Shown: positions 32,702 through 54,626 of the stretch, one piece after another
Layout of the letters: each line of letters begins with the position of its first letter
How positions within the stretch are numbered: position 1 is the stretch's first letter
Origin: Candidatus Poribacteria bacterium
Lineage (GTDB): Bacteria; Poribacteria; WGA-4E; WGA-3G
Direction of reading: 5' to 3'
Assembly: GCA_963422705.1 (NCBI GenBank)
Contig: OY730443.1
Coordinates: 2,270,694 to 2,334,693, forward strand
DNA: 64,000 nucleotides
Translations under genes and position numbers: made by a program
Notes under the pieces: generated by a model
What the model was told of the DNA's origin: nothing
Databases searched by the model: none
The model's input: only the letters and a program-made list of their open reading frames with translations

Positions 32702-35700
32702 ATGTCACATCATAAACCTCCTTTTAAGTCCAACATACGCGATAACCACTCCCGCGGAACTGTCGGAAACTTCCTCGACAACGAAATTAAAAAAGGTTCT
32801 AAACTCTCAATCGTCTCCGCATACTTTACAATTTACGCCTTCAATGCACTCAAAGATAGACTGAACGGAATCTCGGAACTCCGATTTCTGTTAGGGCAAC
32901 CCGACTTTATCACCGGTATGTCCCCAGGTGAATCCCAAGAAAAAGCCTTCCATATTCTAGACAGCGGCTTGCACCTTAACCAGCAGCTCCAACAAAAATC
33001 AGTCGCCAACGCATGTGCACAATGGATAAAAGAGAAGGTAGAAATCAAGAGCGCACGGCAATCAAATCTACTCCATGGCAAGATGTATTATATTGAAACC
33101 AACGGTGCGCAAAAAGCGATTATGGGGAGCTCCAATTTTACCGTGCACGGACTCGGACTGAGCCCACGGGCAAATAATATTGAACTCAATTTTGTCGTCG
33201 ATAATGACACCGACAGACAAGAAATCAAAAAATGGTTTGATGATATCTGGAACGAAAAAAAATTGTCACAGATGTTAAGGAAGATGTACTCGCCGAACTC
33301 AACCGGCTCGGAAAAGATTACGCCCCTGAGTTCATCTATTTTAAGACACTCTATGAACTGTTCAGGGATGAAATCGAATCAAGAAGAGATGGCGAACAGC
33401 AACTAGAAGATATGCATCTGTATGATACCCAGATTTGGGACGCGTTATATGGCTTTCAGAAGGACGGCGCCAAAAGCGTCATCGCCCGCCTTTTAAGACA
33501 CAACGGATGCATTTTGGCCGATAGCGTCGGACTCGGCAAAACTTATACTGCACTCGCCGTTATCAAATTTTTTGAACTGAGAAATGAGCGCATCCTTGTT
33601 TTATGCCCAAAAAAACTCAACAACAACTGGGGTAAATATTTAGCGCATACCGCCCAAAAGGACAACCCTTTTCCTAACGATAGGTTCGGTTATACCCTCT
33701 TATCACATACAGACCTTTCCCGTAGCAGCGGCAAAGCCGGCGATATTAACCTGGAAAATTTCAACTGGCGCAATTTTGATATGGTGCTAATTGACGAATC
33801 GCACAACTTCCGAAACGATACGAAACCTATCCGGGATGACGCAGGCAATATCATCCGGCATAGCCGATATACACGCCTCTTGCATGAAATTATCAAGGCA
33901 GGCACAAAAACGAAAGTACTCATGCTTTCCGCAACGCCCGTTAACACATCACTCATTGACCTCCGCAATCAAATTTACCTCATCACAGAGCAGCGCGAGG
34001 ACGCCTTCAACGACAGTTTGGGCATCCAGAACATCGGAACACTGCTACGACAGGCGCAAACGGAATTTAAAGCATGGGAGGAAAAAGAACCTAAACAGGG
34101 AAAAAGAGATAAATCAGAACTATTAAAAACATTGGGCACCGATTTTTTTACATTGCTGGGGGGCATCTCTATTGCACGGGCGCGACGCCATATTGAGAAG
34201 TTTTATGCCGACGAAATACACCGAATCGGGCCATTTCCAAAACAACTCAAACCCGAGAATTGCCACCCTAAGACGGACTTGGAAGGGAAACTTTCTTATG
34301 AAGATTTAACGGTGCTAATCGAGGACTTCTCATTATCTATCTATCGCCCTTCTAGTTACGTCATCAGTGAAACCGCGAAAAAACGGTTGGAACAGGAAAA
34401 AAAGAGATACCGTTTTAATCAGGTGGACAGGGAACGATTTCTTATCGGTATGATGCGGACGAATTTTCTCAAGCGCTTGGAAAGCTCCGCACACTCCCTC
34501 ACAAAAACGCTTGAACGGACAATCGGAAAAATTGATGATATGGTGGAGAGGATAGAACGATTCGAAAAAAAACGCGACAGCCTCCATACACACGCTGATA
34601 TACTGCCCGATGATGACGATGATGATGATGATTTTTTCGTCAATCGCGCACGCAACCCCTATCACCTACGAGAACTGGATTGCACACGATGGAAAATAGA
34701 ACTTAGAAAGGATAAAGAGAGCTTAACCGCAGCATTGAGCAAAGTCAACGTCATCACACCCGAACGGGATGGAAAACTCAAGCAAATCAAGGCACAGATT
34801 AAAGAAAAAGCACAATACTCAACGGTTGATAAGGACGGAAAAGTTAACCGGAAATTGCTAGTTTTCACGACGTTCAAAGATACTGCACTCTATCTTTATC
34901 AAAATCTCGAACCGCTTGCATCGAAACTCGGTATCAACACCGGATTCGTTGCCGGGACGGAAACGCGTACCACTTACGGCAAAAATAATTTTGACGCTAT
35001 CCTCGCCAATTTCGCCCCCCTGGCGCAGAAACGGGGAAAGAACATAAAAGACGAGGCAGAGGACACAAAAGAAGAAATCGATTTACTCATCGCTACCGAC
35101 TGCATCTCCGAAGGACAAAATCTACAGGACTGCGACACTGTATTGAACTATGACATCCACTGGAACCCAGTGCGTATCATACAACGGTTTGGGCGCATCG
35201 ACAGAATCGGAAGCCGAAATACCGCCGTACGGATGATTAACTACTGGCCCACCGAAGATATGGAAGTCTACCTCCGGTTGCAAAGCCGCGTCGAATCACG
35301 AATGGCGCTCGCTGATACAGTCGCCAGTGGCGACGACGACGTGCTCAATGAAATTACTTACGAACAAGCACAAATGGAACTCAACTTCCGGGAACAGCAA
35401 TTGCAGCAATTGCGCCAAGAGGTTCTCGACTTGGATGACATCTCCGATGGCGTCGTCATGAGCGATTTTACCCTCGATTATTTCTTCGTGCAATTGTTGA
35501 AGTATCTCGAAAAAAATAGGGAACAACTAGAAACTACACCGAAAGGGGCATACGCCATCACCGAAAACAGGGATAACCCTTTGGAAACCGACGTCATCTT
35601 TTTTCTCCGACAAATCAATGCAACGACGGATAAATACGCCAAAGTCGCAAGCCCAATTCATCCCTATTCCGCTGTTTACATTCGTGGTAACGGCGACATT

Positions 35701-36015
35701 CAATACGGATGCGCAAACGCAAAACAGGCACTGGAGCTCTTTGAAGCCCACGCTGTGGGTAATGACAAACCGCTGCGAAAACTGTGTCGCCAATTTGAGA
35801 AAGAGACGCAAAATGGCAAAGATATGGAACGTTACAACAAGCTGTTGAAAACGGTTATCGCGCACATCACCAAGACACATACAACCACACAGATAAAAAA
35901 TATGGGAATTCATGGCACCCGCAGCTTTAAACTGACACCCGCGTCTCAAAAACCGAAAGATGATAACGATTTTGAACTGGTAACGTGGCTCATTATTACA
36001 AAACCACTCTCATAA
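32702..36015 (+). CDS. PLD-like (HKD) nuclease domain fused to SNF2-family helicase, interrupted by a frameshift in an A8 tract
   Basis: Segment 1 (32702-33406) carries a single HKD-type motif LHGKMYYIETNGAQKAIMGSSNFT. The reading frame continues without stops in the +2 frame from the A8 run (33255-33262) into segment 2 (33412-36015). Segment 2 has SNF2 motifs I (ADSVGLGKT), II (LIDESHNF), III (LSATPVNT) and VI (QRFGRIDRIGS). Together they would give a ~1100-aa fusion protein. Confidence 0.8.
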
Positions 36016-36051
36016 AACCAATGCCAAAAACAGCGCAAAAATAGGAACATC

Positions 36052-36393
36052 ATGGCACATAAAAATCAATTATTTGAAAGTCGAACCGAATTTATCGCCA
36101 CACGCGGCGTTAAGGAATACCGCGAGACAATACCCACCTGGGTAACTGCAGACGATGTCGTCTTGGAAATCGGATGCGAATGGGGGACAACCACAACTGG
36201 ATACTATCGCACTCCTCACATCGTATTCAACCGTCATGCGCCCCGAGGCAATCATCGTGAAAAGCGGCGCTTTAAAACGGTTTGTCTCACACTGCACCGC
36301 TTGGCGTTCCGCCCAAAAGCAATAACAGGTGACATCAGCAATTTCTTCACCTTCCCAAATCTAAATCGGATACCCACAGCTACACCCCAATGA
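36052..36393 (+). pseudogene. Small SAM-MTase-fold gene, copy with ~200-bp internal deletion
   Basis: The first 49 codons are identical to the intact 156-aa copy at 40193-40663. After ...GTTTT the sequence jumps to the 3' portion of the gene in another frame. Confidence 0.7.
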
Positions 36394-39300
36394 ACAAAGA
36401 ACACATCAGAAACGCACTCGCCGACATCCCCACAGGCACTCTTGTCCAAACCGCAAAAGCCCTCCTCGCGACGTTGGGATACCGCAGCGAGCGGAACCTG
36501 GAACTCTCCGGAACCGTGGACGACTTTATCGAGAATTTCCCCACACGGGGACAAGAGGACAAAAAAGAACCTACCAAAACCGAACAGACATTTTGTAACA
36601 CCGTTGAATCCATCTATGTCGTCTTTCAAATCACAGAAAATGAAGTCAATCCTCAAGCCCAACAGACAGTTGATTTTGCTGAAAAAAGTCTCGCCGAAAG
36701 TTTCTGCTTTTTCGCCGCCGATTTGAAAGAGAAGCCCACATCCCGCAGCCGCTACGCCGAATTGACACGCGAAATCAATAAGCGGCTCTCTATCCCGGCG
36801 GTGGCGCTCTTTCGCACCGGGAACCGGTTGACAATTGGGGTTGCAGGACGCCGGCAACACCGCCGGAAATCGGGGCGCGATGTCATAGAACGGGTGACGC
36901 TCATCAAGGACATTCGCCTCGAAAATCCGCACCGGGCACACCTTGATATCTTGGCAGAACTCGCCCTCGGAGAATGCATGCAATGGATGGATGCCCACAA
37001 AAAACAGAGAAGCTTTGACGAACTCCTCGACACCTGGCTCGCTAAACTCGACACTGAAGAACTCAATAAGCAGTTCTACCGGAGGTTATTCGCATGGTTT
37101 GAATGGGCAATCTCCGAGGCGACGTTCCCAAAAAACGAAAAGAAAATCTTAAAGCCCGAAGAACACGTGATACGACTCATCACACGCATCCTGTTTATCT
37201 GGTTCTTGAAGGAGCAGGGACTGGTTGCCGATGCACTTTTCAATCAAACACAAATCCCTTCCCTTCTAAAAGATGACGATTTCGATAACGGAAGCTCCTA
37301 CTATCGGGCCGTGCTACAAAATCTGTTTTTTGCTACACTGAACACCGAGATAAAGCAACGCGGTTTTAGCAGCAATACACCTACCGGGCATCGCGACTTC
37401 TCGCGTTACCGCTACGCAGCGGAAATACGCGCCCCTGAGAAACTGGTGGAACTCTTCGCGCAAACCCCCTTTGTCAATGGGGGACTGTTTGAGTGTCTCG
37501 ATAGCGAGGAAGCAGCGATGCACGGCGGATACCGCATCGACTGTTTCTCTGATAAACACGGCAAAAAATTGTGCTTCCCCAACCGCCTCTTTTTTGATAA
37601 ACACTGTGGACTCTTCCCCCTCCTCAATCACTACAAATTCACCATAGAAGAGAATATCCCGGTAGAACAAGAAGTCGCCTTGGAACCAGAATTGCTCGGG
37701 AAGGTGTTTGAAAACCTGCTGGCGGCTTACAATCCGGAGACGGGTACGACGGCGCGTAAAGGGACAGGCTCCTACTACACGCCGCGCGTCGTCGTCGACT
37801 ATATGATAGACGAGATAGTGGTTGCAACCCTGGTAGAAAAGTGTCAGCCGTCCGATGGGGACGCGACACTCTGGGAAGAACGCCTGCGCTACCTATTGGA
37901 TTATGGGCAGACGTTTGACGATGCAAATGAATGGTTTGATGCCCCGGAAACCGACGCGATTGTGCGCACAATTTCGGAGCTGAAAATTCTGGAACCGGCC
38001 GTCGGTTCCGGGGCTTTTCCGCGCGCGATGCTCCGAAAACTCACGCTTGCCCTCCGCCGACTCGATTCGGCAAATCAACGATGGCAGCAGCTGCAAAGAA
38101 GACGCGCCGCACAGAGAGCGGAAGATGCCTTTGAAACCGACGATGACGAAGCGCGACGCGAAGAACTCATTGAAATTGATGAGACGTTCAGACGTTACCG
38201 GGATTCCGACTTCGGCAGGAAGTTATACCTCATTCAGAATAACCTTTTCGGGGTGGACATCCAACCCATAGCCTGCCAAATTACCAAGCTCCGCTTCTTT
38301 ATCTCCCTCGCTATTGAGCAGAAACCGGCGCGGCATCTCGATAATTTCGGGTTCAAACCACTCCCAAACCTCGAGACGCGGTTTCTTGCCGCGAATACCC
38401 TTGTCCGGCTGCAAGGGCAACCCGAATTCGTAACAGTCCATATCCAAGCGTTAGAGCGGCAACTCCGCGAGAATCGCGAACGGCACTTCCACGCCACCAC
38501 CCGTCAGCAAAAGCTTGACTGTATTAGCAACGACAAAGCCATCCGCACAGAATTAGCCGCGGCATTAGAGGAACTCGGTTTCTTTGCACGGGACGCCCAA
38601 AACATCGCGCACTGGAACCCTTACCAGCAGAACGAGAATGCCGACTGGTTCGAACCGGAATGGATGTTCGGGATTAACGACGGGTTTGATATCGTGATGG
38701 GGAACCCGCCATATATTTCAGTTACGAAGATTCCTGCCCCGTTGAGGGATTACCTATTCGAAAACTATCAAACCTGTATAAAGAGAACAGATATCTATAT
38801 CGCGTTCCTCGAAAGAGCCCTTTCCATTCTACAGCCGAACGGGATGATGTGTTTTATTCTCTCGTCGGCGTTTGCGAAACAGAAATATGGCGAAAAGATG
38901 CGCAGACGCCTCATAGAAAATCACGCCATCCGCGACATTGTGGATGCGAGCCGTTATCGGATTTTTGAGAATGCGGCAGTACATAACATCGTTTTGCTGG
39001 TAGGCAATCAAAAAACAGATGTCGAAACGCGAATCCGATTGCATACCAGCAACGCGGATTTTGAGACACCGGGTGAGTGCGCATTTTCTATCAAGCAAGA
39101 CGATTTTGCGGAACTGAAAGATGCCCGCCTTGAAACCGCTCCGAATATTCGTGAAAGTCTCAGGGTGAAAAAGAGGATATGGGAGCGCGCGGTGCGTTTC
39201 GATAAGATTTGCCTTGTCGCTTACGGCGCCAGGCTCAATTCCCCTTTAGCGGGAAAAAGAAAACAGGATTACATCAGCGAAGCCCGTCTTGCAGGGCGCA

Positions 39301-39890
39301 AACGGTTTTGTGAAGGAAGAGACATTCGGCGTTATACGTTTTCTCAAACCGGATGGTTACGCTACTCGCCGAATGAACACTACAACCCGATGTTTCCAGA
39401 ACTTTTTGAAACCGAAAAGTTGATGTTTGCCCGTATTGTGAATGAGCGGTTGCGATTTGCTTATGACGCCGAACGGTTCTACAATTGCAATACGGTTATA
39501 AACTGTGTTCGCTTAGATTTACTTTCCGGTGCCTCCCATATCACCGCCCGCCGCGCAACGCAATCTGCTGATAACAAATTCGCGAAGCGGTATGATTACA
39601 AATTTCTGTTGGGCGCTTTAAATTCTGGTGTCACAAATTGGTATTTCCGCAGTTTCTTAAGCACAGGTTTAGATTGTTACCCGGATGATGTAAAAGAGTT
39701 GCCTATCCCAAAAATGTCGCGTCAGCAGCAACAACCGATTATTGGGTTGACATCTCAAATTCTCGCGGCGAAAGCGAGGGATTCGGAGGCGGACGTCTCC
39801 GCTCTTGAAGCGGAGATTGACAGGCTGCTCTGCGCTTTCTACAAGCTTACCGCGGAGGAGATGCGTATCCTGGAGCATGGGCGGGGATGA
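36390..39890 (+). CDS. Eco57I/PglX/DrmMI-like gamma-class N6-adenine DNA methyltransferase with C-terminal TaqI_C-type target-recognition region (paralog 1 of 3)
   Basis: 1166 aa. Motif X GSYYTP, motif I ILEPAVGSGAFP, motif IV GNPPYI. The C-terminal tail LPIPKMSRQQQQPIIG...EIDRLLCAFYKLTAEEMRILE matches the conserved end of Type IIG/PglX enzymes. No PD-(D/E)xK motif was recognised in the long N-terminal domain. Confidence 0.85.
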   Translation: MNKEHIRNALADIPTGTLVQTAKALLATLGYRSERNLELSGTVDDFIENFPTRGQEDKKEPTKTEQTFCNTVESIYVVFQITENEVNPQAQQTVDFAEKSLAESFCFFAADLKEKPTSRSRYAELTREINKRLSIPAVALFRTGNRLTIGVAGRRQHRRKSGRDVIERVTLIKDIRLENPHRAHLDILAELALGECMQWMDAHKKQRSFDELLDTWLAKLDTEELNKQFYRRLFAWFEWAISEATFPKNEKKILKPEEHVIRLITRILFIWFLKEQGLVADALFNQTQIPSLLKDDDFDNGSSYYRAVLQNLFFATLNTEIKQRGFSSNTPTGHRDFSRYRYAAEIRAPEKLVELFAQTPFVNGGLFECLDSEEAAMHGGYRIDCFSDKHGKKLCFPNRLFFDKHCGLFPLLNHYKFTIEENIPVEQEVALEPELLGKVFENLLAAYNPETGTTARKGTGSYYTPRVVVDYMIDEIVVATLVEKCQPSDGDATLWEERLRYLLDYGQTFDDANEWFDAPETDAIVRTISELKILEPAVGSGAFPRAMLRKLTLALRRLDSANQRWQQLQRRRAAQRAEDAFETDDDEARREELIEIDETFRRYRDSDFGRKLYLIQNNLFGVDIQPIACQITKLRFFISLAIEQKPARHLDNFGFKPLPNLETRFLAANTLVRLQGQPEFVTVHIQALERQLRENRERHFHATTRQQKLDCISNDKAIRTELAAALEELGFFARDAQNIAHWNPYQQNENADWFEPEWMFGINDGFDIVMGNPPYISVTKIPAPLRDYLFENYQTCIKRTDIYIAFLERALSILQPNGMMCFILSSAFAKQKYGEKMRRRLIENHAIRDIVDASRYRIFENAAVHNIVLLVGNQKTDVETRIRLHTSNADFETPGECAFSIKQDDFAELKDARLETAPNIRESLRVKKRIWERAVRFDKICLVAYGARLNSPLAGKRKQDYISEARLAGRKRFCEGRDIRRYTFSQTGWLRYSPNEHYNPMFPELFETEKLMFARIVNERLRFAYDAERFYNCNTVINCVRLDLLSGASHITARRATQSADNKFAKRYDYKFLLGALNSGVTNWYFRSFLSTGLDCYPDDVKELPIPKMSRQQQQPIIGLTSQILAAKARDSEADVSALEAEIDRLLCAFYKLTAEEMRILEHGRG

Positions 39891-39930
39891 ATTCTCTGAA
39901 TTTCTGGTTATCGGGTTTCTAATCACATTA

Positions 39931-40192
39931 AAAATAAGGAACAACTAGAAGCTACACCGAAAGGGGCATACGCCATCACCGAAAACAGGGATAACCCTTT
40001 GGAAACCGACGTCATCTTTTTTCTCCGACACAGATAAAAAATATGGGAATTCATGGCACGCGCAGCTTTAAACTGACACCCGCGTTTCAAAAACCGAAAG
40101 ATGATAACGATTTTGAACTGGTAACGTGGCTCATTATTACAAAACCACCCTCATAAAACCAATGCCAAAAACAGCGCAAAAATAGGAACATC
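39931..40192 (+). other. Rearranged partial duplicate of the SNF2 helicase 3' coding end (junction relic of repeat unit 2)
   Basis: Matches 35516-35612 and 35878-36050 with the intervening ~270 bp deleted. Confidence 0.8.
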
Positions 40193-40663
40193 ATGGCACA
40201 TAAAAATCAATTATTTGAAGGTCGAACCGAATTTATCGCCACGCGCGGCGTTAAGGAATACCGCGAGACAATACCCACCTGGGTAACTGCAGACGATGTC
40301 GTCTTGGAAATCGGATGCGAATGGGGGACAACCACAACACTAATCGCCCCGCACTGCCAGAAAGTCATCGCGACTGATATCAGCACCAAATGTATTCACC
40401 GTGCACGAGAAATGTACCCTCAACTTCAATTTGAACTGCTTGACGGTTTTGATATCAGGGCAGCGCTTGAACTTGGTGAACCGTTTAGCAAAATCTACAT
40501 CGATATTTCGGGGCTGTCAGGCTACAACTCACTGCTGGATACTATCGCACTCCTCACATCGTATGCAACCGTCATGCGCCCCGAGGCAATCATCGTGAAA
40601 AGCGGCGCTTTAAAACGGTTTGTCTCACACTGCACCGCTTGGCGTTCCGCCCAAAAGCAATAA
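40193..40663 (+). CDS. Small class-I SAM-dependent methyltransferase-fold protein (156 aa)
   Basis: Motif I-like VLEIGCEWGTTT, acidic beta-2 end VIATDIS, then LQFELLDGFD and IYIDIS. A minimal Rossmann MTase core; function unknown. Confidence 0.4.
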   Translation: MAHKNQLFEGRTEFIATRGVKEYRETIPTWVTADDVVLEIGCEWGTTTTLIAPHCQKVIATDISTKCIHRAREMYPQLQFELLDGFDIRAALELGEPFSKIYIDISGLSGYNSLLDTIALLTSYATVMRPEAIIVKSGALKRFVSHCTAWRSAQKQ

Positions 40664-40727: not shown

Positions 40728-43700
40728 ATGAACAAAGAACACATCAGAAACGCACTCGCCGACATCCCAACAGGCAATCTTGTCCAAACCGCAAAAGCCC
40801 TCCTCGCGACGATGGGATACCGCAGCGAGCGGAACCTGGAACTCTCCGGAACCGTGGACGACTTTATCGAGAATTTCCCCACACGGGGACAAGAGGACAA
40901 AAAAGAACCTACCAAAACCGAACAGACATTTCGTAACACCGTTGAATCCATCTATGTCGTCTTTCAAATCACAGAAAATGAAATCAATCCTCAAGCCCAA
41001 CAGACAGTTGATTTTGCTGAAAAAAGTCTCGCCGAAAGTTTCTGCTTTTTCGCCGCCGATTTGAAAGAGAAGCCTACCTCCCGCAGCCGCTACGCCGAAT
41101 TGACACGGGAAATCAATAAGCGACTCTCTATCCCGGCGGTGGTGCTCTTTCGCACCGGGAACCGGTTGACAATTGGGGTTGCAGGACGCCGGCAACACCG
41201 CCGGAAATCGGGGCGCGATGTCATAGAACGGGTGACGCTCATCAAGGACATTCGCCTCGAAAATCCGCACCGGGCACACCTTGATATCTTGGCAGAACTC
41301 GCCCTCGGAGAATGCATGCAATGGATGGATGCCCACAAAAAACAGAGAAGCTTTGACGAACTCCTCGACACCTGGCTCGCTAAACTCGACACTGAAGAAC
41401 TCAATAAGCAGTTCTACCGGAGGTTATTCGCATGGTTTGAATGGGCAATCTCCGAGGCGACGTTCCCAAAAAACGAAAAGAAAATCTTAAAGCCCGAAGA
41501 ACACGTGATACGACTCATCACACGCATCCTGTTTATCTGGTTCTTGAAGGAGCAGGGACTGGTTGCCGATGCACTTTTCAATCAAACACAAATCCCTTCC
41601 CTTCTAAAAGATGACGATTTCGATAACGGAAGCTCCTACTATCGGGCCGTGCTACAAAATCTGTTTTTTGCTACACTGAACACCGAGATAAAGCAACGCG
41701 GTTTTAGCAGCAATACACCTACCGGGCATCGCGACTTCTCGCGTTACCGCTACGCAGCGGAAATACGCGCCCCTGAGAAACTGGTGGAACTCTTCGCGCA
41801 AACCCCCTTTGTCAATGGGGGACTGTTTGAGTGTCTCGATAGCGAGGAAGCAGCGATGCACGGCGGATACCGCATCGACTGTTTCTCTGATAAACACGGC
41901 AAAAAATTGTGCTTCCCCAACCGCCTCTTTTTTGATAAACACTGTGGACTCTTCCCCCTCCTCAATCACTACAAATTCACCATAGAAGAGAATATCCCGG
42001 TAGAACAAGAAGTCGCCTTGGAACCAGAATTGCTCGGGAAGGTGTTTGAAAACCTGCTGGCGGCTTACAATCCGGAGACGGGTACGACGGCGCGTAAAGG
42101 GACAGGCTCCTACTACACGCCGCGCGTCGTCGTCGACTATATGATAGACGAGATAGTGGTTGCAACCCTGGTAGAAAAGTGTCAGCCGTCCGATGGGGAC
42201 GCGACACTCTGGGAAGAACGCCTGCGCTACCTATTGGATTATGGGCAGACGTTTGACGATGCAAATGAATGGTTTGATGCCCCGGAAACCGACGCGATTG
42301 TGCGCACAATTTCGGAGCTGAAAATTCTGGAACCGGCCGTCGGTTCCGGGGCTTTTCCGCTCGCGATGCTCCGAAAACTCACGCTTGCCCTCCGCCGACT
42401 CGATTCGGCAAATCAACGATGGCAGCAGCTGCAAAGAAGACGCGCCGCACAGAGAGCGGAAGATGCCTTTGAAACCGACGATGACGAAGCGCGACGCGAA
42501 GAACTCATTGAAATTGATGAGACGTTCAGACGTTACCGGGATTCCGACTTCGGCAGGAAGTTATACCTCATTCAGAATAACCTTTTCGGGGTGGACATCC
42601 AACCCATAGCCTGCCAAATTACCAAGCTCCGCTTCTTTATCTCCCTCGCTATTGAGCAGAAACCGGCGCGGCATCTCGATAATTTCGGGTTCAAACCACT
42701 CCCAAACCTCGAGACGCGGTTTCTTGCCGCGAATACCCTTGTCCGGCTGCAAGGGCAACCCGAATTCGTAACAGTCCATATCCAAGCGTTAGAGCGGCAA
42801 CTCCGCGAGAATCGCGAACGGCACTTCCACGCCACCACCCGTCAGCAAAAGCTTGACTGTATTAGCAACGACAAAGCCATCCGCACAGAATTAGCCGCGG
42901 CATTAGAGGAACTCGGTTTCTTTGCACGGGACGCCCAAAACATCGCGCACTGGAACCCTTACCAGCAGAACGAGAATGCCGACTGGTTCGAACCGGAATG
43001 GATGTTCGGGATTAACGACGGGTTTGATATCGTGATGGGGAACCCGCCATATATTTCAGTTACGAAGATTCCTGCCCCGTTGAGGGATTACCTATTCGAA
43101 AACTATCAAACCTGTATAAAGAGAACAGATATCTATATCGCGTTCCTCGAAAGAGCCCTCTCCATTCTACAGCCGAACGGGATGATGTGTTTTATTCTCT
43201 CGTCGGCGTTTGCGAAACAGAAATATGGCGAAAAGATGCGCAGACGCCTCATAGAAAATCACGCCATCCGCGACATTGTGGATGCAAGCCGTTATCGGAT
43301 TTTTGAGAATGCGGCAGTACATAACATCGTTTTGCTGGTAGGCAATCAAAAAACAGATGTCGAAACGCGAATCCGATTGCATACCAGCAACGCGGATTTT
43401 GAGACACCGGGTGAGTGCGCATTTTCTATCAAGCAAGACGATTTTGCGGAACTGAAAGATGCCCGCCTTGAAACCGCTCCGAATATTCGTGAAAGTCTCA
43501 GGGTGAAAAAGAGGATATGGGAGCGCGCGGTGCGTTTCGATAAGATTTGCCTTGTCGCTTACGGCGCCAGGCTCAATTCCCCTTCAGCGGGAAAAAGAAA
43601 ACAGGATTACATCAGCGATGTCCGTCTTCCACGAGGTAAACGGTTTTGTGAAGGAAGAGACATTCGGCGTTATACGTTTTCTCAAACCGGATGGTTACGC

Positions 43701-44228
43701 TACTCGCCGAATGAACACTACAACTCGATGTTTCCAGAACTTTTTGAAACCGAAAAGTTGATGTTTCTCGGGATTGTAAAAGAGGGGTTGCGATGTGCTT
43801 ATGACGCCGAACGGTTCTACAATTGCAGCACGGTTATAAACTGTGTTCGCTTAGATTTACTTTCCGGTGCCTCTCATATCACAGCCCGCCGCGCAACGCA
43901 ATCTGCTGATAACAAATTCGTGAAGCGGTATGATTACAAATTTCTGTTGGGCGTTTTAAATTCTGGCGTCACAAATTGGTATTTCCGCAGCTTTTTAAGC
44001 GAGGGGTTACATTGTCACCCAAATGATGTAAAAGAGTTGCCTATTCCAAAAATGCCGCGCCAGCAGCAGCAACCGATTATTGGGTTGACATCTCACATTC
44101 TCGCGGCGAAAGCGGAGGATTCGGAGGCGGACGTCTCCGCTCTTGAAGCGGAGATTGACAGGCTGCTCTGCGCTTTCTACAACTTTACGCCGGAGGAGAT
44201 GCGTATCCTGGAGTGTAGGTGGGGATAA
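40728..44228 (+). CDS. Eco57I/PglX/DrmMI-like N6-adenine DNA methyltransferase (paralog 2, TRD variant)
   Basis: 1166 aa with the same motifs as paralog 1. Near-identical to paralog 1 except for clustered substitutions in the C-terminal ~250 aa (DVRLPRG, LGIVKEGLRC, SEGLHCHPND, YNFTPEEMRILECRWG). Confidence 0.85.
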   Translation: MNKEHIRNALADIPTGNLVQTAKALLATMGYRSERNLELSGTVDDFIENFPTRGQEDKKEPTKTEQTFRNTVESIYVVFQITENEINPQAQQTVDFAEKSLAESFCFFAADLKEKPTSRSRYAELTREINKRLSIPAVVLFRTGNRLTIGVAGRRQHRRKSGRDVIERVTLIKDIRLENPHRAHLDILAELALGECMQWMDAHKKQRSFDELLDTWLAKLDTEELNKQFYRRLFAWFEWAISEATFPKNEKKILKPEEHVIRLITRILFIWFLKEQGLVADALFNQTQIPSLLKDDDFDNGSSYYRAVLQNLFFATLNTEIKQRGFSSNTPTGHRDFSRYRYAAEIRAPEKLVELFAQTPFVNGGLFECLDSEEAAMHGGYRIDCFSDKHGKKLCFPNRLFFDKHCGLFPLLNHYKFTIEENIPVEQEVALEPELLGKVFENLLAAYNPETGTTARKGTGSYYTPRVVVDYMIDEIVVATLVEKCQPSDGDATLWEERLRYLLDYGQTFDDANEWFDAPETDAIVRTISELKILEPAVGSGAFPLAMLRKLTLALRRLDSANQRWQQLQRRRAAQRAEDAFETDDDEARREELIEIDETFRRYRDSDFGRKLYLIQNNLFGVDIQPIACQITKLRFFISLAIEQKPARHLDNFGFKPLPNLETRFLAANTLVRLQGQPEFVTVHIQALERQLRENRERHFHATTRQQKLDCISNDKAIRTELAAALEELGFFARDAQNIAHWNPYQQNENADWFEPEWMFGINDGFDIVMGNPPYISVTKIPAPLRDYLFENYQTCIKRTDIYIAFLERALSILQPNGMMCFILSSAFAKQKYGEKMRRRLIENHAIRDIVDASRYRIFENAAVHNIVLLVGNQKTDVETRIRLHTSNADFETPGECAFSIKQDDFAELKDARLETAPNIRESLRVKKRIWERAVRFDKICLVAYGARLNSPSAGKRKQDYISDVRLPRGKRFCEGRDIRRYTFSQTGWLRYSPNEHYNSMFPELFETEKLMFLGIVKEGLRCAYDAERFYNCSTVINCVRLDLLSGASHITARRATQSADNKFVKRYDYKFLLGVLNSGVTNWYFRSFLSEGLHCHPNDVKELPIPKMPRQQQQPIIGLTSHILAAKAEDSEADVSALEAEIDRLLCAFYNFTPEEMRILECRWG

Positions 44229-44268: not shown

Positions 44269-47200
44269 TGAAACGCGGGGTAACAAATTTTTTGTATGCG
44301 TGCATAAAAACTCGGTAAAAGATTAGCGGGACTACTATGTGAAAAGCGGCGCTTTAAAACTGTTTGTCTCACACTGCAATCTAAGTCGGATACCCACAGC
44401 TACACCCCAATGAACAAAGAACACATCAGAAACGCACTCGCCGACATCCCCACAGGCACTCTTGTCCAAACCGCAAAAGCCCTCCTCGCGACGTTGGGAT
44501 ACCGCAGCGAGCGGAACCTGGAACTCTCCGGAACCGTGGACGACTTTATCGAGAATTTCCCCACACGGGGACAAGAGGACAAAAAAGAACCTACTAAAAC
44601 CGAACAGACATTTCGTAACACCGTTGAATCCATCTATGTCGTCTTTCAAATCACAGAAAATGAAGTCAATCCTCAAGCCCAACAGACAGTTGATTTTGCT
44701 GAAAAAAGTCTCGCCGAAAGTTTCTGCTTTTTCGCCGCCGATTTGAAAGAGAAGCCCACATCCCGCAGCCGCTACGCCGAATTGACACGCGAAATCAATA
44801 AGCGGCTCTCTATCCCGGCGGTGGCGCTCTTTCGCACCGGGAACCGGTTGACAATTGGGTTTGCAGGACGCCGGCAACACCGCCGGAAATCGGGGCTCGA
44901 TGTCATAGAACGGGTGACGCTCATCAAGGACATTCGCCTCGAAAATCCGCACCGCGCACACCTTGATATCTTGGCAGAACTCGCCCTGGGAGAATGCCTG
45001 CAATGGATGGATGCCCACAAAAAACAGAGAAACTTTGACGGACTCCTCGACACCTGGTTCGCTAAACTCGACACCGAAGAACTCAATAAGCAGTTCTACC
45101 GGAGGTTATTCGCATGGTTTGAATGGGCAATCTCCGAGGCGACGTTCCCAAAAAACGAAAAGAAAATCTTAAAGCCAGAAGAACACGTGATACGATTCAT
45201 TACACGCATCCTGTTTATCTGGTTCTTGAAGGAGCAGGGACTGGTTGCCGACGCACTTTTCAATCAAACACAAATCCCTTCCCTTCTAAAAGATGACGAT
45301 TTCGATAACGGAAGCTCCTACTATCGGGCCGTGCTACAAAATCTGTTTTTCGCTACACTGAACACCGAGATAACGCGGCGCGGTTTTAGCAGCAATACAC
45401 CTACCGGGCATCGCGACTTCTCGCGTTACCGCTACGCAGCGGAGATACGCGCCCCTGAGAAACTGTTGGAACTCTTCGCGCAAACCCCCTTTGTCAATGG
45501 CGGACTGTTTGAGTGTCTCGATAGCGAGGAGGCAGCGATGCACGGCGGATACCGCATCGACTGTTTCTCTGATAAACACGGCAAAAAATTGTGCTTCCCC
45601 AACCGTCTCTTTTTTGATAAACACCGCGGACTCTTCCCCCTCCTCAATCACTACAAATTCACCATAGAAGAGAATACCCCGGTAGAACAAGAAGTCGCCT
45701 TGGAACCAGAATTGCTCGGGAAGGTGTTTGAAAACCTGCTGGCGGCTTACAACCCGGAAACGGGTACGACGGCGCGTAAAGGGACAGGCTCCTACTACAC
45801 GCCGCGCGTCATCGTCGACTATATGATAGACGAGATAGTGGTTGCAACCCTGGTAGAAAAGTGTCAGCCGTCCGATGGGGACGCGACACTCTGGGAAGAA
45901 CGCCTTCGCTACCTATTGGATTATGGGCAGACGTTTGACGATGCAAATGAATGGTTTGATGCACCGGAAACTGACGCGATTGTGCGCACAATTTCGGAGC
46001 TGAAAATTCTGGAACCGGCCGTCGGTTCCGGGGCTTTTCCGCGCGCGATGCTCCGAAAACTCACGCTTGCCCTCCGCCGACTCGATTCGGCAAATCAACG
46101 ATGGCAGCAGCTGCAAAGGAGACGCGCCGCACAGAGAGCAGAAGATGCCTTTGAAACCGACGATGACGAAGCGCGACGCGAAGAACTCATTGAAATTGAT
46201 GAGACGTTCAGACGTTACCGGGATTCCGACTTCGGCAGGAAGTTATACCTCATTCAGAATAACCTTTTCGGGGTGGACATCCAACCCATAGCCTGCCAAA
46301 TTACCAAGCTCCGCTTCTTTATCTCCCTCGCTATTGAGCAGAAACCGGCGCGGCATCTCGATAATTTCGGGTTCAAACCGCTCCCAAACCTCGAGACGCG
46401 GTTTCTTGCCGCGAATACCCTCGTCGGGCTGCAAGGGCAACCCGAATTAGTAACAGTCCATGTCCAAGCGTTAGAGCGGCAACTCCGCGAGAATCGCGAA
46501 CGGCACTTCCACGCCACCACCCGTCAGCAAAAGCTTGACTGTATTAGCAACGACAAAGCCATCCGCACAGAATTAGCCGCGGCATTAGAGGAACTCGGGT
46601 TCTCTGCACGTAACGCCGAAAACATCGCGCACTGGAACCCTTACGAGCAGAACGAGAACGCCGACTGGTTCGAACCGGAATGGATGTTCGGGATTAACGA
46701 TGGTTTTGATATCGTGATGGGGAACCCGCCATATATTTCAGTTACGAAGATTCCTGCCCCGTTGAGGGATTACCTATTCGAAAACTATCAAACCTGTATC
46801 AGGAGAACAGATATCTATATCGCGTTCCTCGAAAGAGCCCTCTCCATTCTACAGCCGAACGGGATGATGTGTTTTATTCTCTCGTCGGCGTTTGCGAAAC
46901 AGAAATATGGCGAAAAGATGCGCAGACGCCTCATAGAAAATCACGCCATCCGCGACATTGTGGATGCAAGCCGTTATCGGATTTTTGAGAATGCGGCAGT
47001 ACATAACATCGTTTTGCTGGTAGGCAATCAAAAAACAGATGTCGAAACGCAAATCCGATTGCATACCAGCAACGCGGATTTTGAGACACCGGGTGAATGC
47101 GCATTTTCTATCAAGCAAGACGTTTTTGCGGAACTGAAAGATGCCCGCCTTGAAACCGCTCCGAATATTCGTGAAAGTCTCAGGGTGAAAAAGAGGATAT

Positions 47201-47950
47201 GGGAGCGCGCGGTGCGTTTCGATAAGATTTGCCTTGTCGCTTACGGCGCCAGGCTCAATTCCCCTTCAGCGGGAAAAAGAAAACAGGATTACATCAGCGA
47301 AGCCCGTCTTGCAGGGCGCAAACGGTTTTGTGAAGGAAGAGACATTCGGCGTTATACGTTTTCTCAAACCGGATGGTTACGCTACTCGCCGAATGAACAC
47401 TACAACCCGATGTTTCCAGAACTTTTTGAAACCGAAAAGTTGATGTTTACCTGTATTGTGAATGAGCGGTTGCGATTTGCTTATGACGCCGAACGGTTCT
47501 ACAATTCCCACACGGTTATAAACTGTGTTCGCTTAGATTTACTTTCCGGTGCCTCCCATATCACCGCCCGCCGCGCAACGCAATCTGCTGATAACAAATT
47601 CGCGAAGCGGTATGATTACAAATTTCTGTTGGGCGTTTTAAATTCTGGCGTCACAAATTGGTATTTCCGCAGTTTCTTAAGCACAGGTTTAAATTGTTAC
47701 CCGGATGATGTAAAAGAGTTGCCTATCCCAAAAATGTCGCGCCAGCAGCAACAACCGATTATTGGGTTGACATCTCAAATTCTCGCGGCGAAAGCGGAGG
47801 ATTCGGAGGCGGACGTCTCCGCTCTTGAAGCGGAGATTGACAGGCTGCTCTGCGCTTTCTACAAGCTTACCGCGGAGGAGATGAGTATCCTGGAGCATGG
47901 GCGGGGATGAATTCTCTGAATTTCTGGTTATCAGGTTTCTAATCACATTG
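44269..47950 (+). repeat. Tandem repeat unit 3 (~3.7 kb)
   Basis: Only the last ~35 bp of the small gene remain upstream of paralog 3. Confidence 0.8.
44410..47910 (+). CDS. Eco57I/PglX/DrmMI-like N6-adenine DNA methyltransferase (paralog 3)
   Basis: 1166 aa and overall the most divergent copy, with substitutions scattered along its length. Its TRD patches resemble paralog 1. Confidence 0.85.
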   Translation: MNKEHIRNALADIPTGTLVQTAKALLATLGYRSERNLELSGTVDDFIENFPTRGQEDKKEPTKTEQTFRNTVESIYVVFQITENEVNPQAQQTVDFAEKSLAESFCFFAADLKEKPTSRSRYAELTREINKRLSIPAVALFRTGNRLTIGFAGRRQHRRKSGLDVIERVTLIKDIRLENPHRAHLDILAELALGECLQWMDAHKKQRNFDGLLDTWFAKLDTEELNKQFYRRLFAWFEWAISEATFPKNEKKILKPEEHVIRFITRILFIWFLKEQGLVADALFNQTQIPSLLKDDDFDNGSSYYRAVLQNLFFATLNTEITRRGFSSNTPTGHRDFSRYRYAAEIRAPEKLLELFAQTPFVNGGLFECLDSEEAAMHGGYRIDCFSDKHGKKLCFPNRLFFDKHRGLFPLLNHYKFTIEENTPVEQEVALEPELLGKVFENLLAAYNPETGTTARKGTGSYYTPRVIVDYMIDEIVVATLVEKCQPSDGDATLWEERLRYLLDYGQTFDDANEWFDAPETDAIVRTISELKILEPAVGSGAFPRAMLRKLTLALRRLDSANQRWQQLQRRRAAQRAEDAFETDDDEARREELIEIDETFRRYRDSDFGRKLYLIQNNLFGVDIQPIACQITKLRFFISLAIEQKPARHLDNFGFKPLPNLETRFLAANTLVGLQGQPELVTVHVQALERQLRENRERHFHATTRQQKLDCISNDKAIRTELAAALEELGFSARNAENIAHWNPYEQNENADWFEPEWMFGINDGFDIVMGNPPYISVTKIPAPLRDYLFENYQTCIRRTDIYIAFLERALSILQPNGMMCFILSSAFAKQKYGEKMRRRLIENHAIRDIVDASRYRIFENAAVHNIVLLVGNQKTDVETQIRLHTSNADFETPGECAFSIKQDVFAELKDARLETAPNIRESLRVKKRIWERAVRFDKICLVAYGARLNSPSAGKRKQDYISEARLAGRKRFCEGRDIRRYTFSQTGWLRYSPNEHYNPMFPELFETEKLMFTCIVNERLRFAYDAERFYNSHTVINCVRLDLLSGASHITARRATQSADNKFAKRYDYKFLLGVLNSGVTNWYFRSFLSTGLNCYPDDVKELPIPKMSRQQQQPIIGLTSQILAAKAEDSEADVSALEAEIDRLLCAFYKLTAEEMSILEHGRG

Positions 47951-49257: not shown

Positions 49258-49502
49258 AGAAAGGCAGAAATCTTATTCTTTTGGGCTACCTACGACGCCT
49301 GTCTTCCACGAAGTAAACGGTTTTGTGAAGGAAAATGCATTGCGCGCTGTGCCCGTTTGTTACGGTAGTCAGATGCTTCGCGAAAACAGGGACATCCGTC
49401 CAACGTGAGATGCTGTCAGTCGGCGCGCATCGACATCAGAGCAAAGATTCGCAAGTTAGGCGGTGCCCGGCGGTTGAGCATCCGGTATTGCATGGCGAAA
49501 AA

Positions 49503-50273
49503 TTATGTTTTAATCACAAAGAATTTTTCCTCTTTAATCTGTTCTTCAGGAAATCGTGCGCGTGCCCAGATAGCCTTTGCATTCTCTATCATCTGCGGAT
49601 GTCCACATGCATAGACGACGGCGTTATTTGCATTAAAATCGTTGGCATCGCCATATTTCCGAATCACATCTTCAGCGCGTCCACTCTCCCCCGTCCATTC
49701 CGGTTCTTCCCAGGGGCGACTTACCGTGGGCACAAATGTGAACCAGTCTTCTTGTTCGGCGAGGGTGCTGAGTTCGTCCATGTAGTATCCAAGTTCCCAT
49801 GAATGGCTAGCGCCGACAATTGCGAGGATTTGATGGGGGCTGTTTTCGCCGCGTTCCTGCTCAATTTTTTGTGTGCGTGCGATGCTAATGTATGGTGCTG
49901 CGCCAGTGACAGTACCCGCCATCAGGTGCCGCGTCATTCCGGTTTCGGTGTCCAAAACAAATTTCCCGACGAGCTTTTCGCGGAAGAAGACACTATCGCC
50001 GAGGTTGAGCTCCCAAAAGCGTGGTGTGGTTTCGCCTTCTGGTACGAGTTCGACGAAAACTTCCATAAACGGTTCATGGGGTGAGGAAACAATGGAGTAT
50101 GGGCGTTGTACGATTTTTTCGCCGGCTTCAAAGCCGATAGTGGCGTATTGTCCTGCAATAAACGACAGGGTTTTCTCAGTACGAAACTTGAAGGCGGCTA
50201 AATCTTCGGAGAAGTCTTCGCGCTCAATGAGTTCCCCTTTACAATATCGCGCTCTTGCGCGTCTTCTTTGCAT
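49503..50273 (-). CDS. Ferredoxin-NADP+ reductase-family oxidoreductase (FAD/NAD(P)-binding)
   Basis: RPYSIVSSP (RxYS FAD-binding motif) and GTVTGAAPYISIA (NAD(P)-binding). Confidence 0.65.
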   Translation of the reverse strand: MQRRRARARYCKGELIEREDFSEDLAAFKFRTEKTLSFIAGQYATIGFEAGEKIVQRPYSIVSSPHEPFMEVFVELVPEGETTPRFWELNLGDSVFFREKLVGKFVLDTETGMTRHLMAGTVTGAAPYISIARTQKIEQERGENSPHQILAIVGASHSWELGYYMDELSTLAEQEDWFTFVPTVSRPWEEPEWTGESGRAEDVIRKYGDANDFNANNAVVYACGHPQMIENAKAIWARARFPEEQIKEEKFFVIKT

Positions 50274-50328
50274 AATAACTTCCTCTACAATATTGCGCTC
50301 TTGCGCGTCTTCTTTGCATAATAACTTG
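50241..50328. repeat. 46-bp tandem duplication spanning the start codon region of the FNR-like gene
   Basis: acaatat(c/t)gcgctcttgcgcgtcttctttgcataataactt x2. Confidence 0.7.
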
Positions 50329-50538: not shown

Positions 50539-51435
50539 ATGCGTCATTTTGAAGTGAAAGTGAATGCGAAAACACACTTAGTTGTTGAAAATGAGACTGG
50601 GCGGTGTTTAGGGGGCATCGGTTCTAATTTTTATCGCCCGTTTGTTTTTCCGTTCTACACCCCTGCTGGGCATACCGTGATTCAGGAGTTCGCGTTTGAT
50701 CATCCTTTTCATAACGGTATCTTTGTGGGGCAAGGCCCCGTCTCGGTAACTGACGAGCGTGAAACGCCGTCTGCTGCCTCCGGGGAGATAGGTTTGCCAA
50801 GGGCGGCGAACTTTTGGGCGTCGCCGCCGCGGCGTTCGTTTACAGACAAAATCTTCGCGAACCTCGGGCGGATGGATACTGAGAAAGCAATCGGCATCGT
50901 GCGCCACGCAGATGGTGTTAAATTCGTTCAGAAGGTTATCTGGCGTGATAAGGATGAGAACGCGCTAATCGATGAGATTCGCAGTGTAAATCTGTGGGCA
51001 CTCCGTGACGCGACAATCTGCGATGTGAGCAGCGAGAAAATAGCGACTTACGGCACCACAACCTATCCACAGACGAAGTATGGTAGCATCGGTATCCGGG
51101 TAGAACCGAGGTTGCTGCCGGTGATGGGCGGGACTGTTCTTGGCGACAATAACCGGGCTGGCAACGCCGATGTGGTTCATGAAAGCGATTCTGACTTTGT
51201 CGCGTATCAAAATCACCTCCCGGGGCACGGGGATTTCGGTGTCTTCATGACAATTCTGAACGAAGGGATTCGCGGCCCGTGGTTTATTCGGGATTACGGG
51301 ATGGCACTGTACAACCCTACGTGGCGTCAAACGATTTCGACAGCGGCCGGTGAGAGTTGGACAATCTCGCTTCGGGTTGTCGCGTATGATGGTGCCCTGA
51401 CTTCGGCACGAACGACGCGCTGGTGCCGGCCCTGA
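50539..51435 (+). CDS. Hypothetical protein, DUF6807/PmoA-like
   Basis: PAGHTVIQEFAFDHPFHNGIFVG resembles the DHxHHrGl motif of the PmoA-like family. Confidence 0.35.
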   Translation: MRHFEVKVNAKTHLVVENETGRCLGGIGSNFYRPFVFPFYTPAGHTVIQEFAFDHPFHNGIFVGQGPVSVTDERETPSAASGEIGLPRAANFWASPPRRSFTDKIFANLGRMDTEKAIGIVRHADGVKFVQKVIWRDKDENALIDEIRSVNLWALRDATICDVSSEKIATYGTTTYPQTKYGSIGIRVEPRLLPVMGGTVLGDNNRAGNADVVHESDSDFVAYQNHLPGHGDFGVFMTILNEGIRGPWFIRDYGMALYNPTWRQTISTAAGESWTISLRVVAYDGALTSARTTRWCRP

Positions 51436-51515
51436 TTTATGAAAGTGAACTGTGAAGCGGAATCTCAATGCAAGAAAATATTTTAGAACTCCGTGGGATA
51501 ACGAAGAAGTTTGGT
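51388..51515 (+). repeat. 128-bp direct repeat, left copy (3' end of upstream gene plus a truncated start of the ABC ATPase gene)
   Basis: Matches 54499-54626 with 3 mismatches. Confidence 0.85.
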
Positions 51516-52044
51516 ATCAGGAACGAAAAGCACTGACTGATGAATGTCTGGCATGATTCGACGAGCCTGATTCGCTTCAACCTGCTTTTTTTACTGTTTG
51601 TTTTCTATAAATGGTTGATAAATCCGTGAGAAAGTGTTAACATGTGAAGGTATGAAACACATCATAGACTTCATCGATGACTGCAAATTCTCTGCCAAAG
51701 GGTTTGAAAACCCGAAAGGAGCATTTACAATACTTTTGAAAATTTTACCTTCCGAACCTCAATGGGTTCTCGATGAGTGGGATGACAGCCAACCAGGAAC
51801 CTGGGATGACAGCCAACCATGAGCCATTGATGAGTTTCTCAACCTTCCATATGATAGAGGATTGCCAGGAACGCTACACTCCTTTGATTCGGTTTGCCAT
51901 CAAAGCCGTAATCCCAATCACTCCCGTTCGTGTCAAACAATCTCCTGTTCGGACGCGGACAGACTCGGACAAAGAAATACTTTCTTTATCCGAAGACACG
52001 CGGAAAGAATAACAACTGGATATATCCAACAAGGAGAAATCGAC

Positions 52045-53472: not shown

Positions 53473-54231
53473 GTGGATGCCACAGGGGTTCCTTGTCGTG
53501 TCCCTTTTTACTTTACCAAAGGGTTTGAAAACCCGAAAGGAGCATTTACAATCCTTTTGAAAAAGTTTTACCTTCCGATTGGTATTCTGATAGTTGCGCT
53601 CTGTGCAGTCGGTTTATTCTTGTTGCGTTCCGATGTGCCAGAGGAACCGATTGTGATTCACAAGCCGACAATCACGGAAACGCCATTAAAGGTTACCGCA
53701 GCAGAGGAAACCGCTCAAGAGAAATTTGATCGCGAGATGCGAGAAAAAATGGCTCTTAAGGAACAAGAAATCGCCAAATACAAGGAGAAAACCGCCAAAT
53801 ACAACGATGAAACCGCCAAATACAAGGAGAAAACCGCCAAATACAAGGAGAAAATCGCCAAATACAACGATAAAACCGCCAAATACAACGATAAAACCGC
53901 AGCCATTCGTGCTGAGTTTGAAGCACTCAAGGCGAAAGATGCTGAACGGACAGAATACCTTTCCCGTATTACAGAGAAGGGCAAAGAGTTTGTAGCTCAA
54001 TTCCCGGATATGCTGGAGATGACACCTGAAAAGTATCTTGCATTATCCGAAACGGAGCAGGAAAAATTCCTTTTGCGTTGCGTTGAATACGATTTATTGA
54101 TAGAAAATATTCAAGAAATAATCAATTCAATGCCTCAATGGATTCTCGATGAGTGCGATGACAGCCAACCAGGAGCCATTGATGAGTTTCTCAACCTTCC
54201 ATCGCTAACAGAATTATACGGGAGTCTATAA
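53473..54231 (+). CDS. Membrane-anchored protein with six AKY(K/N)(E/D)(K/E)T heptad repeats
   Basis: TM helix IGILIVALCAVGLFLL. The heptads are encoded by a 21-bp x6 tandem repeat. The true start is probably TTG near 53556, after the RBS AAAGGAG. Confidence 0.45.
   Translation: MDATGVPCRVPFYFTKGFENPKGAFTILLKKFYLPIGILIVALCAVGLFLLRSDVPEEPIVIHKPTITETPLKVTAAEETAQEKFDREMREKMALKEQEIAKYKEKTAKYNDETAKYKEKTAKYKEKIAKYNDKTAKYNDKTAAIRAEFEALKAKDAERTEYLSRITEKGKEFVAQFPDMLEMTPEKYLALSETEQEKFLLRCVEYDLLIENIQEIINSMPQWILDECDDSQPGAIDEFLNLPSLTELYGSL
53773..53898 (+). repeat. 21-bp x6 in-frame tandem repeat (gccaaatacaa(g/c)ga(g/t)(a/g)aaacc)
   Basis: Read directly from the sequence. Encodes the AKYKEKT/AKYNDKT heptads. 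Confidence 0.8.
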
Positions 54232-54498: not shown

Positions 54499-54626
54499 GA
54501 TGGCGCCCTGACTTCGGCACGAACAACGCGCTGGTGCCGGCCCTGATTTATGAAAGTGAACTGTGAAGCGGAATCTCAATGCAAGAAAATATTTTAGAAC
54601 TCCGTGGCATAACGAAGAAGTTTGGT
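54499..54626 (+). repeat. 128-bp direct repeat, right copy
   Basis: Contains the functional start of the ABC ATPase gene (ATG 54579). Confidence 0.85.

Follow-up and report, generated by a model that had tools for sequence, protein, structure and literature searches.

The stretch of DNA analysed here, called the window below, consists of 64,000 nucleotides of Candidatus Poribacteria bacterium (contig OY730443.1) and carries three methyltransferase/specificity genes, c1 (36390..39890), c2 (40728..44228), and c3 (44410..47910). They lie in tandem on the + strand, and each of them is exactly 1166 codons long. They are preceded on the same strand by a gene encoding a nuclease of the PLD/HKD family, which is the first gene of the cassette (32702..33406, 234 aa; Pfam PLDc_2, 1.7e-11, and RE_NgoFVII, 1.3e-9), and by a gene encoding an SNF2-type helicase/translocase (33412..36015, 867 aa; Pfam SNF2-rel_dom, ResIII, and Helicase_C). 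The helicase gene matches the PADLOC entry C3a139 "HKD+Snf2" at 9e-93, and the PLD gene matches the N-terminal part of C3a139. This match and the conserved order of the genes identify the locus as a PLD-SNF2-methyltransferase cassette of the kind in which C3a139 is found with a Type IIG methyltransferase.

The tandem repeat unit begins within the helicase gene. The c1-c2 spacer, which is 837 nt long, is made up of helicase fragments and an open reading frame (ORF) of 156 aa. The fragments, derived from the 3' end of the helicase gene, occupy 39930..40338 (+) and match 35512-35612 and 35887-36197 at 98% identity (self-BLAST). The 156-aa ORF (40193..40663, +) belongs to the repeat unit and resembles a small class-I S-adenosylmethionine (SAM) methyltransferase (Pfam Methyltransf_25, 3e-6; PADLOC mad2, 3.9e-9). 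A frameshifted copy of this ORF, about 197 nt shorter, is located before c1 (36052..36393, +, 113 aa): its first 49 aa are those of the 156-aa ORF save for one residue (G10S), after which the frame diverges, and the start of c1 overlaps it (ATGA). The c2-c3 spacer is 181 nt long, and c3 retains only 32 nt of the shared leader; this 32-nt leader is identical in c1, c2, and c3, each of which has its own ATG. In close relatives such as L002, a toxin-antitoxin-like pair occurs in place of the small SAM-methyltransferase-like ORF. No inverted repeats were detected in 31000-52000, and Pfam scans identified no recombinase, reverse transcriptase, or transposase near the array, where the neighbouring genes are housekeeping genes. 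An exact-pattern scan of the JGI metagenomes gave no match.

The three proteins carry the hallmarks of DNA methyltransferases: Pfam Eco57I (PF07669) was matched with 122 bits (cut-off 25.3) and N6_Mtase with 48 bits, and both motif I, EPAVGSGAF (535-543), and the NPPY motif (772-775) are identical in c1, c2, and c3. Downstream of the catalytic domain, TaqI_C (PF12950) was matched at 973-1104 with 40.5-45.1 bits (cut-off 26.5), in agreement with the TaqI_C-type target-recognition domain (TRD) proposed in an earlier note on this DNA. The proteins are therefore gamma-class N6-adenine DNA methyltransferases of the Eco57I type with a C-terminal TaqI-like TRD. The closest solved structures by sequence are those of CamA, BseCI, and TaqI. 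In the AF2 model (pLDDT 83), the best full-length structural match is with the BREX protein PglX/BrxX (1107 aligned columns); the TM score is 0.72 with CamA (methyltransferase and TRD) and 0.62 with MmeI. The note had also placed the proteins in the MmeI family. As far as the fold and the architecture are concerned (helical linker, gamma methyltransferase, TRD), this proved to be right, but the sequences do not belong there: identity amounts to 12-16%, no MmeI_* Pfam model was matched at E<=0.01, nor when the N- and C-terminal parts were searched at E<=10, and the MmeI structure 5HR4 was not reached by either the sequence search or the PDB profile search. Some homologues carry precomputed PF20473 hits. 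A candidate nuclease motif, E85...[E/D]111-x-K113, is present in the N-terminal part and is only partly conserved in the family. Judging from the sequence matches and the gene order, c1-c3 are predicted to supply specificity, as one of the subunits, to a restriction-like cassette for defence that consists of PLD nuclease, SNF2 helicase, and methyltransferase.

The earlier note was concerned with 43560-44228, which corresponds to residues 945-1166 of c2, and described c1 and c2 as nearly identical over their first ~900 aa; only six amino acid differences were indeed found in residues 1-952. The five patches of c1 to c2 changes that it quoted are all exact, letter for letter, in the protein alignment: ISEARLAGR to ISDVRLPRG (962-970), ARIVNERLRF to LGIVKEGLRC (1014-1023), STGLDCYPDD to SEGLHCHPND (1091-1100), KARDSE to KAEDSE, and YKLTAEEMRILEHGRG to YNFTPEEMRILECRWG. 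The clustering at the C-terminal end is equally clear at the nucleotide level, since the last 618 nt hold 48 of the 62 coding differences between c1 and c2 (binomial p=1.5e-24). The description of these patches as non-synonymous and as concentrated in the target-recognition region needs some qualification: the block contains 27 non-synonymous codon changes, but also 12 synonymous ones, and besides the TRD cluster there exists a second c2-private cluster, the N-terminal block at 40769..41143 (+; gene nt 42-416), with 10 differences, four of which are amino acid changes. Nei-Gojobori estimates of dS between c1 and c2 amount to 0.053 in codons 1-145 (dN/dS 0.28), 0.0037 in codons 146-960 (dN/dS 0.29), and 0.136 in codons 961-1166 (dN 0.067, dN/dS 0.50), the last dS value being ~37-fold above that of the middle of the gene. 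In the TRD block of c1 and c3, dN/dS is 0.86.

Within the TRD block of c2 (43585..44228, +), five patches totalling 108 nt hold 33 of the 48 differences, which corresponds to ~30% divergence vs. 2.9% outside (dispersion p<1e-4). All of them lie on the + strand. Patch 1 (43617..43637, aa 964-970) shows 33% nucleotide divergence. Patch 2 (43767..43796, aa 1014-1023) includes codons 1014 and 1015, which differ in all three copies. Patch 3 (43989..44024, aa 1088-1099) includes columns 1092 and 1095 and aligns with the base-contact loop 516-523 of CamA; these two columns and column 1015 discriminate between classes of the family, as described below. Patches 4 and 5 (44181..44222, aa 1152-1155 and 1163-1165) belong to the C-terminal helices and tail, where the columns of the family are highly variable.

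The earlier view of c3 as the more diverged copy was not upheld: it differs from c1 at 33 amino acid positions, vs. 34 in the case of c2, and its differences are spread over nt 186-2714 instead of being concentrated in the TRD. Nor does c3 wholly keep the patches of the c1 type, since it has E1130 in common with c2 and residues of its own at 1014/1015 (TC), 1033/1034 (SH), and 1095 (N). Four amino acid positions are tri-allelic among the copies (1014, 1015, 1034, and 1095; p=0.009), and the three tri-allelic nucleotide sites are all non-synonymous first codon positions. In terms of integrity, the copies hardly differ: at 389 conserved columns, each shows 31-34 deviations, most of which are conservative. 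At many sites of the middle block, c3 carries the family consensus and c1 and c2 carry common derived residues. At codon 423 (37656-37658 in c1, 41994-41996 in c2), for example, c1 and c2 have Ile, and Thr is present in c3 and in 112/112 homologues (motif EENTP).

When the informative sites were sorted by the copy that is the odd one out, long runs were observed along the gene: c2 is the odd copy at nt 42-416 and from nt 2892 onwards, with c3 taking this place in between (nt 451-2714). Adjacent informative sites name the same copy in 92 of 114 pairs, the maximum in 20,000 permutations being 68 (p<=5e-5), and two breakpoints (nt 416-451 and 2714-2858) account for 100 of the 105 sites. The three genes are thus recombination mosaics of three blocks (N-terminal, core, and TRD), with the compositions N-a, M-a, T-a in c1, N-b, M-a, T-b in c2, and N-a, M-b, T-a' in c3, where M-b is the c3-private middle block (44860..47123, +). 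Since the synonymous divergence rises together with the non-synonymous divergence, the TRD block of c2 represents a separate, older allele, the rest of the gene having been homogenised. The cause of the pattern is a gene-conversion mosaic preserving distinct TRD alleles, and not a burst of non-synonymous changes. Inside the TRD block, the co-clustering of synonymous and non-synonymous changes that templated micro-conversion would produce was not significant (p=0.31). Mutagenesis by a diversity-generating retroelement was rejected because the variable sites are not biased towards adenine (among the 48 of them, c1 has A at 8, C at 18, G at 12, and T at 10) and no reverse transcriptase was found in the Pfam scans. 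An inversion shufflon or phase-variable TRD switch in the window was discarded owing to the lack of inverted repeats and of a recombinase mentioned above.

An isolated relic of TRD patch 1, 49 nt long (49293..49341, +), is situated between genes, 1.4 kb downstream of the array. With 86% identity to c2 (local score 63, vs. a shuffled maximum of 30), it encodes D-A-C-L-P-R-S, which is a fourth version of this patch. A copy or cassette that was lost may have left it behind; the idea that a degraded fourth copy follows the array was considered and rejected, as just these 49 nt exist.

The same blocks recur in other combinations in L001, a 14.4-kb ENA contig of which two proteins fall in the same protein cluster as the copies of the window. 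It carries four (partial) copies and shows zero private substitutions over 14.4 kb. The block types N-a/M-a/T-a', N-b/M-a/T-a, and N-b/M-a (a truncated copy) occur there: a c1-type N-terminal block and core are joined to a c3-type TRD, a c2-type N-terminal block to a c1-type TRD, and a c2-type N-terminal block to the shared core. The 156-aa ORF precedes copies B and C. Each of the three full or partial copies at L001 3001-14452 has a 1-nt indel. In copies B and C, an identical deletion of a C is present at ~nt 40 of the c2-type N-terminal block, and translation might restart at Met29, which results from the L29M substitution specific to this block type; in copy A, there is an extra A at codon 1130. 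These indels are either errors of the reads or genuine variants of an inactivating or phase-like nature. The contig is suggestive, though not conclusive, of ongoing recombination among the copies. Along with the mosaic, it lends partial support to the recombinational reservoir of specificities which the earlier note had mentioned as an alternative.

Homologues of c1-c3 number in the thousands, the nearest being just 65% identical. Among species-representative genomes, they are concentrated in sponge-associated metagenome-assembled genomes (MAGs) of Poribacteria, Caldilineaceae, Dehalococcoidia, Latescibacterota, and others, often with several loci per genome. The PLD-SNF2-methyltransferase gene order is kept in ~55 of 80 related loci, in many phyla. 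Many of the homologue matches end at residues 870-890. Core and TRD identities are poorly correlated (r=0.30), and cores that are 80% identical can be paired with TRDs that are 16% identical. In a Poribacteria MAG (OZ241845.1; L042 2997-18195), three tandem methyltransferases follow a single PLD-SNF2 fusion: they are 91-96% identical at aa 1-200 and 9-30% identical in the TRD half. The layout in which one nuclease/helicase is accompanied by several specificity subunits therefore recurs, and tandem methyltransferases (two or three) behind one PLD-SNF2 were also found in L016 (6536-22270). The identities in L042 suggest that the N-terminal domain may be kept matched to a shared partner. TRD fragments on the minus strand were observed just downstream of the methyltransferase gene in L061 (16435-17921), L065 (12802-14355), L070 (13252-14196), and L043 (13681-14127). 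Inverted repeats accompany them in L061 (112 nt, 100% complementary), L065, and L070, and none was found at the fragment of L043; the elements in L061, L065, and L070 may be TRD inversion switches. Such inverted fragments agree with the inversions published for Cj0031-like enzymes (PMC9881135). At L010 5760-9802 and L056 4391-8253, the match to the SNF2 helicase falls into two parts ~1.3-1.5 kb apart, which suggests that a mobile element or an intron was inserted in the gene.

Co-variation at residues 1015, 1092, and 1095 was analysed in 112 homologues. These residues fall into discrete classes, RDN (47 members), NEH (39), and EGR (10), and only four columns of the 1166 (1015, 1016, 1092, and 1095) separate RDN from NEH. 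The two classes are not clades: sequences of different class can be as much as 97.6% identical in the core, and the nearest core neighbour shares the class in just 59 out of 86 cases. Three of the four separating columns, namely 1015, 1092, and 1095, distinguish c1 from c2 (Fisher p=0.004): the triad is R-T-D in c1, G-E-H in c2, and C-T-N in c3. Independent pairs of near-identical sequences in other genomes repeat several of the c1 to c2 changes (969 to R, P1000 to S, 1092 to E, and 1095 to H). The 1092-1099 loop aligns stably with CamA, G1093 corresponding to I517 and Y1097 to Y521, which are base contacts in CamA (PMC8187626). A mutual-information ranking of the TRD columns was uninformative because wholly replaced TRDs dominate it. 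The triad co-variation appears, by analogy, to be of the same kind as that of the specificity residues identified in MmeI and PglX, and residues 1015, 1092, and 1095 are most likely responsible for reading a single base pair in the target motif. It is plausible that c1, c2, and c3 recognise different DNA motifs, as the earlier note proposed; the co-variation in the family supports this idea, towards which we incline with some caution.

Several known systems resemble this locus in part. In the case of MmeI (Type IIL/IIG, PDB 5HR4), a gamma-class N6-adenine methyltransferase is likewise followed by a TRD and preceded by an N-terminal helical linker, and co-varying TRD residues setting single bases of the motif parallel the triad described here. 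In MmeI, a few such residues determine single bases (PMC11341690, with reference to Morgan & Luyten 2009 and Callahan 2016). According to the same paper, the motifs of MmeI and PglX are altered or widened by one or two TRD substitutions, and pglX is known to be subject to phase variation. The present locus differs from MmeI in having separate PLD nuclease and SNF2 helicase genes upstream and three tandem copies. BREX PglX/BrxX (PDB 8C45, 9EWZ) is comparable both in its full-length fold and as the only component that confers specificity on a defence system of several proteins, but the partner genes here are those of a PLD nuclease and an SNF2 helicase. Membership of BREX itself was rejected, as no brxA/B/C, pglZ, or brxL lies nearby and the NCBIfam model BREX_1_MTaseX scores 77.9 bits (cut-off 500). 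The BREX-related "BR" systems combine a DUF499 AAA+ ATPase and an SNF2 helicase with a methyltransferase whose TRD is nested, and type 2 also has DUF3780 (PMC12839542); they were rejected too, the cassette having no ATPase gene and its TRD being C-terminal and not nested. Class 1 DISARM shares with the locus the combination of SNF2, N6-adenine methyltransferase, and PLD, with weak profile matches to DrmD, DrmMI, and DrmC; membership was rejected since neither DrmA nor DrmB (DUF1998) occurs in the window and DrmD scores 140 vs. 610 bits. In the case of MADS, the curated cut-off was missed.

The same gene partnership is seen between the Cj0031-like Type IIG enzymes and the PLD+SNF2 fusion (C3a139), where the variable part is again the C-terminal specificity region. 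PLD and SNF2 are unfused here, whereas they are fused in L002 and L042, and full-length direct repeats and homologous recombination take the place of inverted partial cassettes with an invertase. The type I systems offer another parallel: they can have several or shuffling hsdS genes, and TRDs undergo "domain movement" between paralogous methyltransferases. As in these systems, alternative specificity modules would serve one restriction/translocation module and TRD blocks would be swapped by recombination between paralogs; the difference is that specificity is fused to the methyltransferase here (1166 aa) and that whole genes are repeated in tandem. Cj0031-like Type II enzymes beside a PLD+SNF coding sequence undergo programmed TRD inversions (PMC9881135).

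Taking these data together, we consider it fairly probable that the tandem mosaic methyltransferase/specificity genes of the array have different motifs. The three ORFs would have arisen as tandem duplicates of the methyltransferase/specificity subunit of the cassette, and exchange between the direct repeats, by homologous recombination or gene conversion, would have homogenised some blocks and left others distinct. The substitutions in c2 would belong to the separate, older TRD allele, with its differences packed into a few short loops including residues 1015, 1092, and 1095, which switch as a unit across the family. If they are co-expressed and co-operate with the PLD and SNF2 proteins, the copies, each with its own combination at these positions, would probably endow the single nuclease/helicase module with two or three recognition/methylation specificities, and ongoing recombination among them would re-assort the blocks in the population.

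Several points weigh against this interpretation. The concentration of the c1-c2 differences is largely the product of the recombination mosaic; the sliding dN/dS analysis suggested in the earlier note gave values below 1 in the TRD block, so that positive selection is not demonstrated. The promoter and terminator scans, which bear on the expression of c2 and c3, were at chance level. The triads RTD, GEH, and CTN are not canonical classes of the family, and c2 has non-consensus residues at conserved columns (F1023C, L1153F, and Y1097H), so that relaxed constraint has to be reckoned with. Apart from the 1092-1099 loop, the mapping of the DNA-contact residues of CamA is unstable, since two hidden Markov model alignments conflict in the case of residues 1010-1035, where the one places R425 of CamA at 1015 and the other S472/A473 at 1033/1034. 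As to L001, it has three frameshifting 1-nt indels and, going by its name, 1x coverage; the contig might stem from a single read or from a graph walk that is chimeric. An alternative is that of redundant duplicates under concerted evolution, which would all recognise the same motif, the TRD differences being neutral or relaxed leftovers not yet homogenised by gene conversion. The dN/dS values below 1 in every block, the joint rise in synonymous and non-synonymous divergence, the changes at conserved columns, the non-canonical triads, and the frameshifts in the L001 copies speak for redundancy. We regard it as unlikely, given that the changes within the block are strongly over-dispersed, gathering in loops, that three of the four tri-allelic positions arose via non-synonymous first codon positions, that the differences affect three of the four class-discriminating columns, that they repeat changes of independent lineages, and that the length of exactly 1166 codons has been preserved in each of the three ORFs, with a similar degree of conservation.

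The overlap between the start of c1 and the upstream ORF might mean that c1, translationally coupled to the operon, is the only expressed gene, and that c2 and c3 are silent donors whose TRD blocks are brought by recombination to the site of expression, in the manner of phase or antigenic variation. This would be in keeping with the c3-type TRD at the first complete position that follows the helicase fragment in L001, with the 49-nt relic, with the inverted TRD fragments and inverted repeats of the relatives L061 and L065, and with the fact that Eco57I-domain methylases are enriched 16-fold among the targets of programmed inversion (PMC9881135). Silent donors nonetheless seem to us to be quite improbable, as the three copies are full-length and intact and each has its own ATG and the same leader; the repeats are direct and not inverted, there is no nearby recombinase, reverse transcriptase, or transposase, and recombination between direct repeats mostly causes deletions or duplications rather than reversible switching. 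There is only a very slight chance that the assembler placed strain variants of a single gene one after the other: the DNA probably comes from a MAG and the discordant low-coverage contig L001 exists, but the three junctions differ in structure (837 nt with helicase fragments and the 156-aa ORF vs. 181 nt), tandem arrays are also present in the related genomes L042 and L016, and the three proteins are on record on one contig of 4,001,648 bp.

Other repeats were observed in the window. Interspersed repeats of 60-130 nt, in both orientations and 75-91% identical, occur at 10738-10825, 13226-13311, 13790-14013, 15650-15890, and 57205-57306; several of them lie near a tRNA gene (13671-13743, minus strand), and they may be REP- or MITE-like. 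The Rfam search of the window identified only a tRNA, outside the array. Intergenic segments that are 95-98% identical are duplicated at 51388-51515 and 54499-54626, and at 51695-51850, 53516-53578, and 54133-54202. A 46-nt tandem duplication is present downstream of the array (50236-50327).

The themes encountered here, i.e., TRD reprogramming (MmeI, PglX), multiple or shuffling specificity genes, and TRD inversions, are known ones, and the setting is an uncharacterised cassette family: the PLD-SNF2-MmeI/PglX-like methyltransferase cassette is very abundant in the genomes of sponge symbionts. A bolder proposal, which we put forward only tentatively and are inclined to doubt, is that the array might be a recombination-driven locus of specificity diversification without a dedicated invertase, so that cells would carry different sets of specificities, and that the triad might be a one-base-pair "recognition code" in a restriction-modification-like family enriched in sponge symbionts. 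If the specificities do not differ, the locus would be a case of ordinary concerted evolution of duplicated methyltransferase genes. If they do differ, it would multiply and reshuffle restriction specificity via tandem whole-gene repeats, and not via invertible cassettes. The triad classes RDN, NEH, and EGR provide a concrete prediction of the base-reading residues, which would permit motif prediction and retargeting as in the case of MmeI and PglX.

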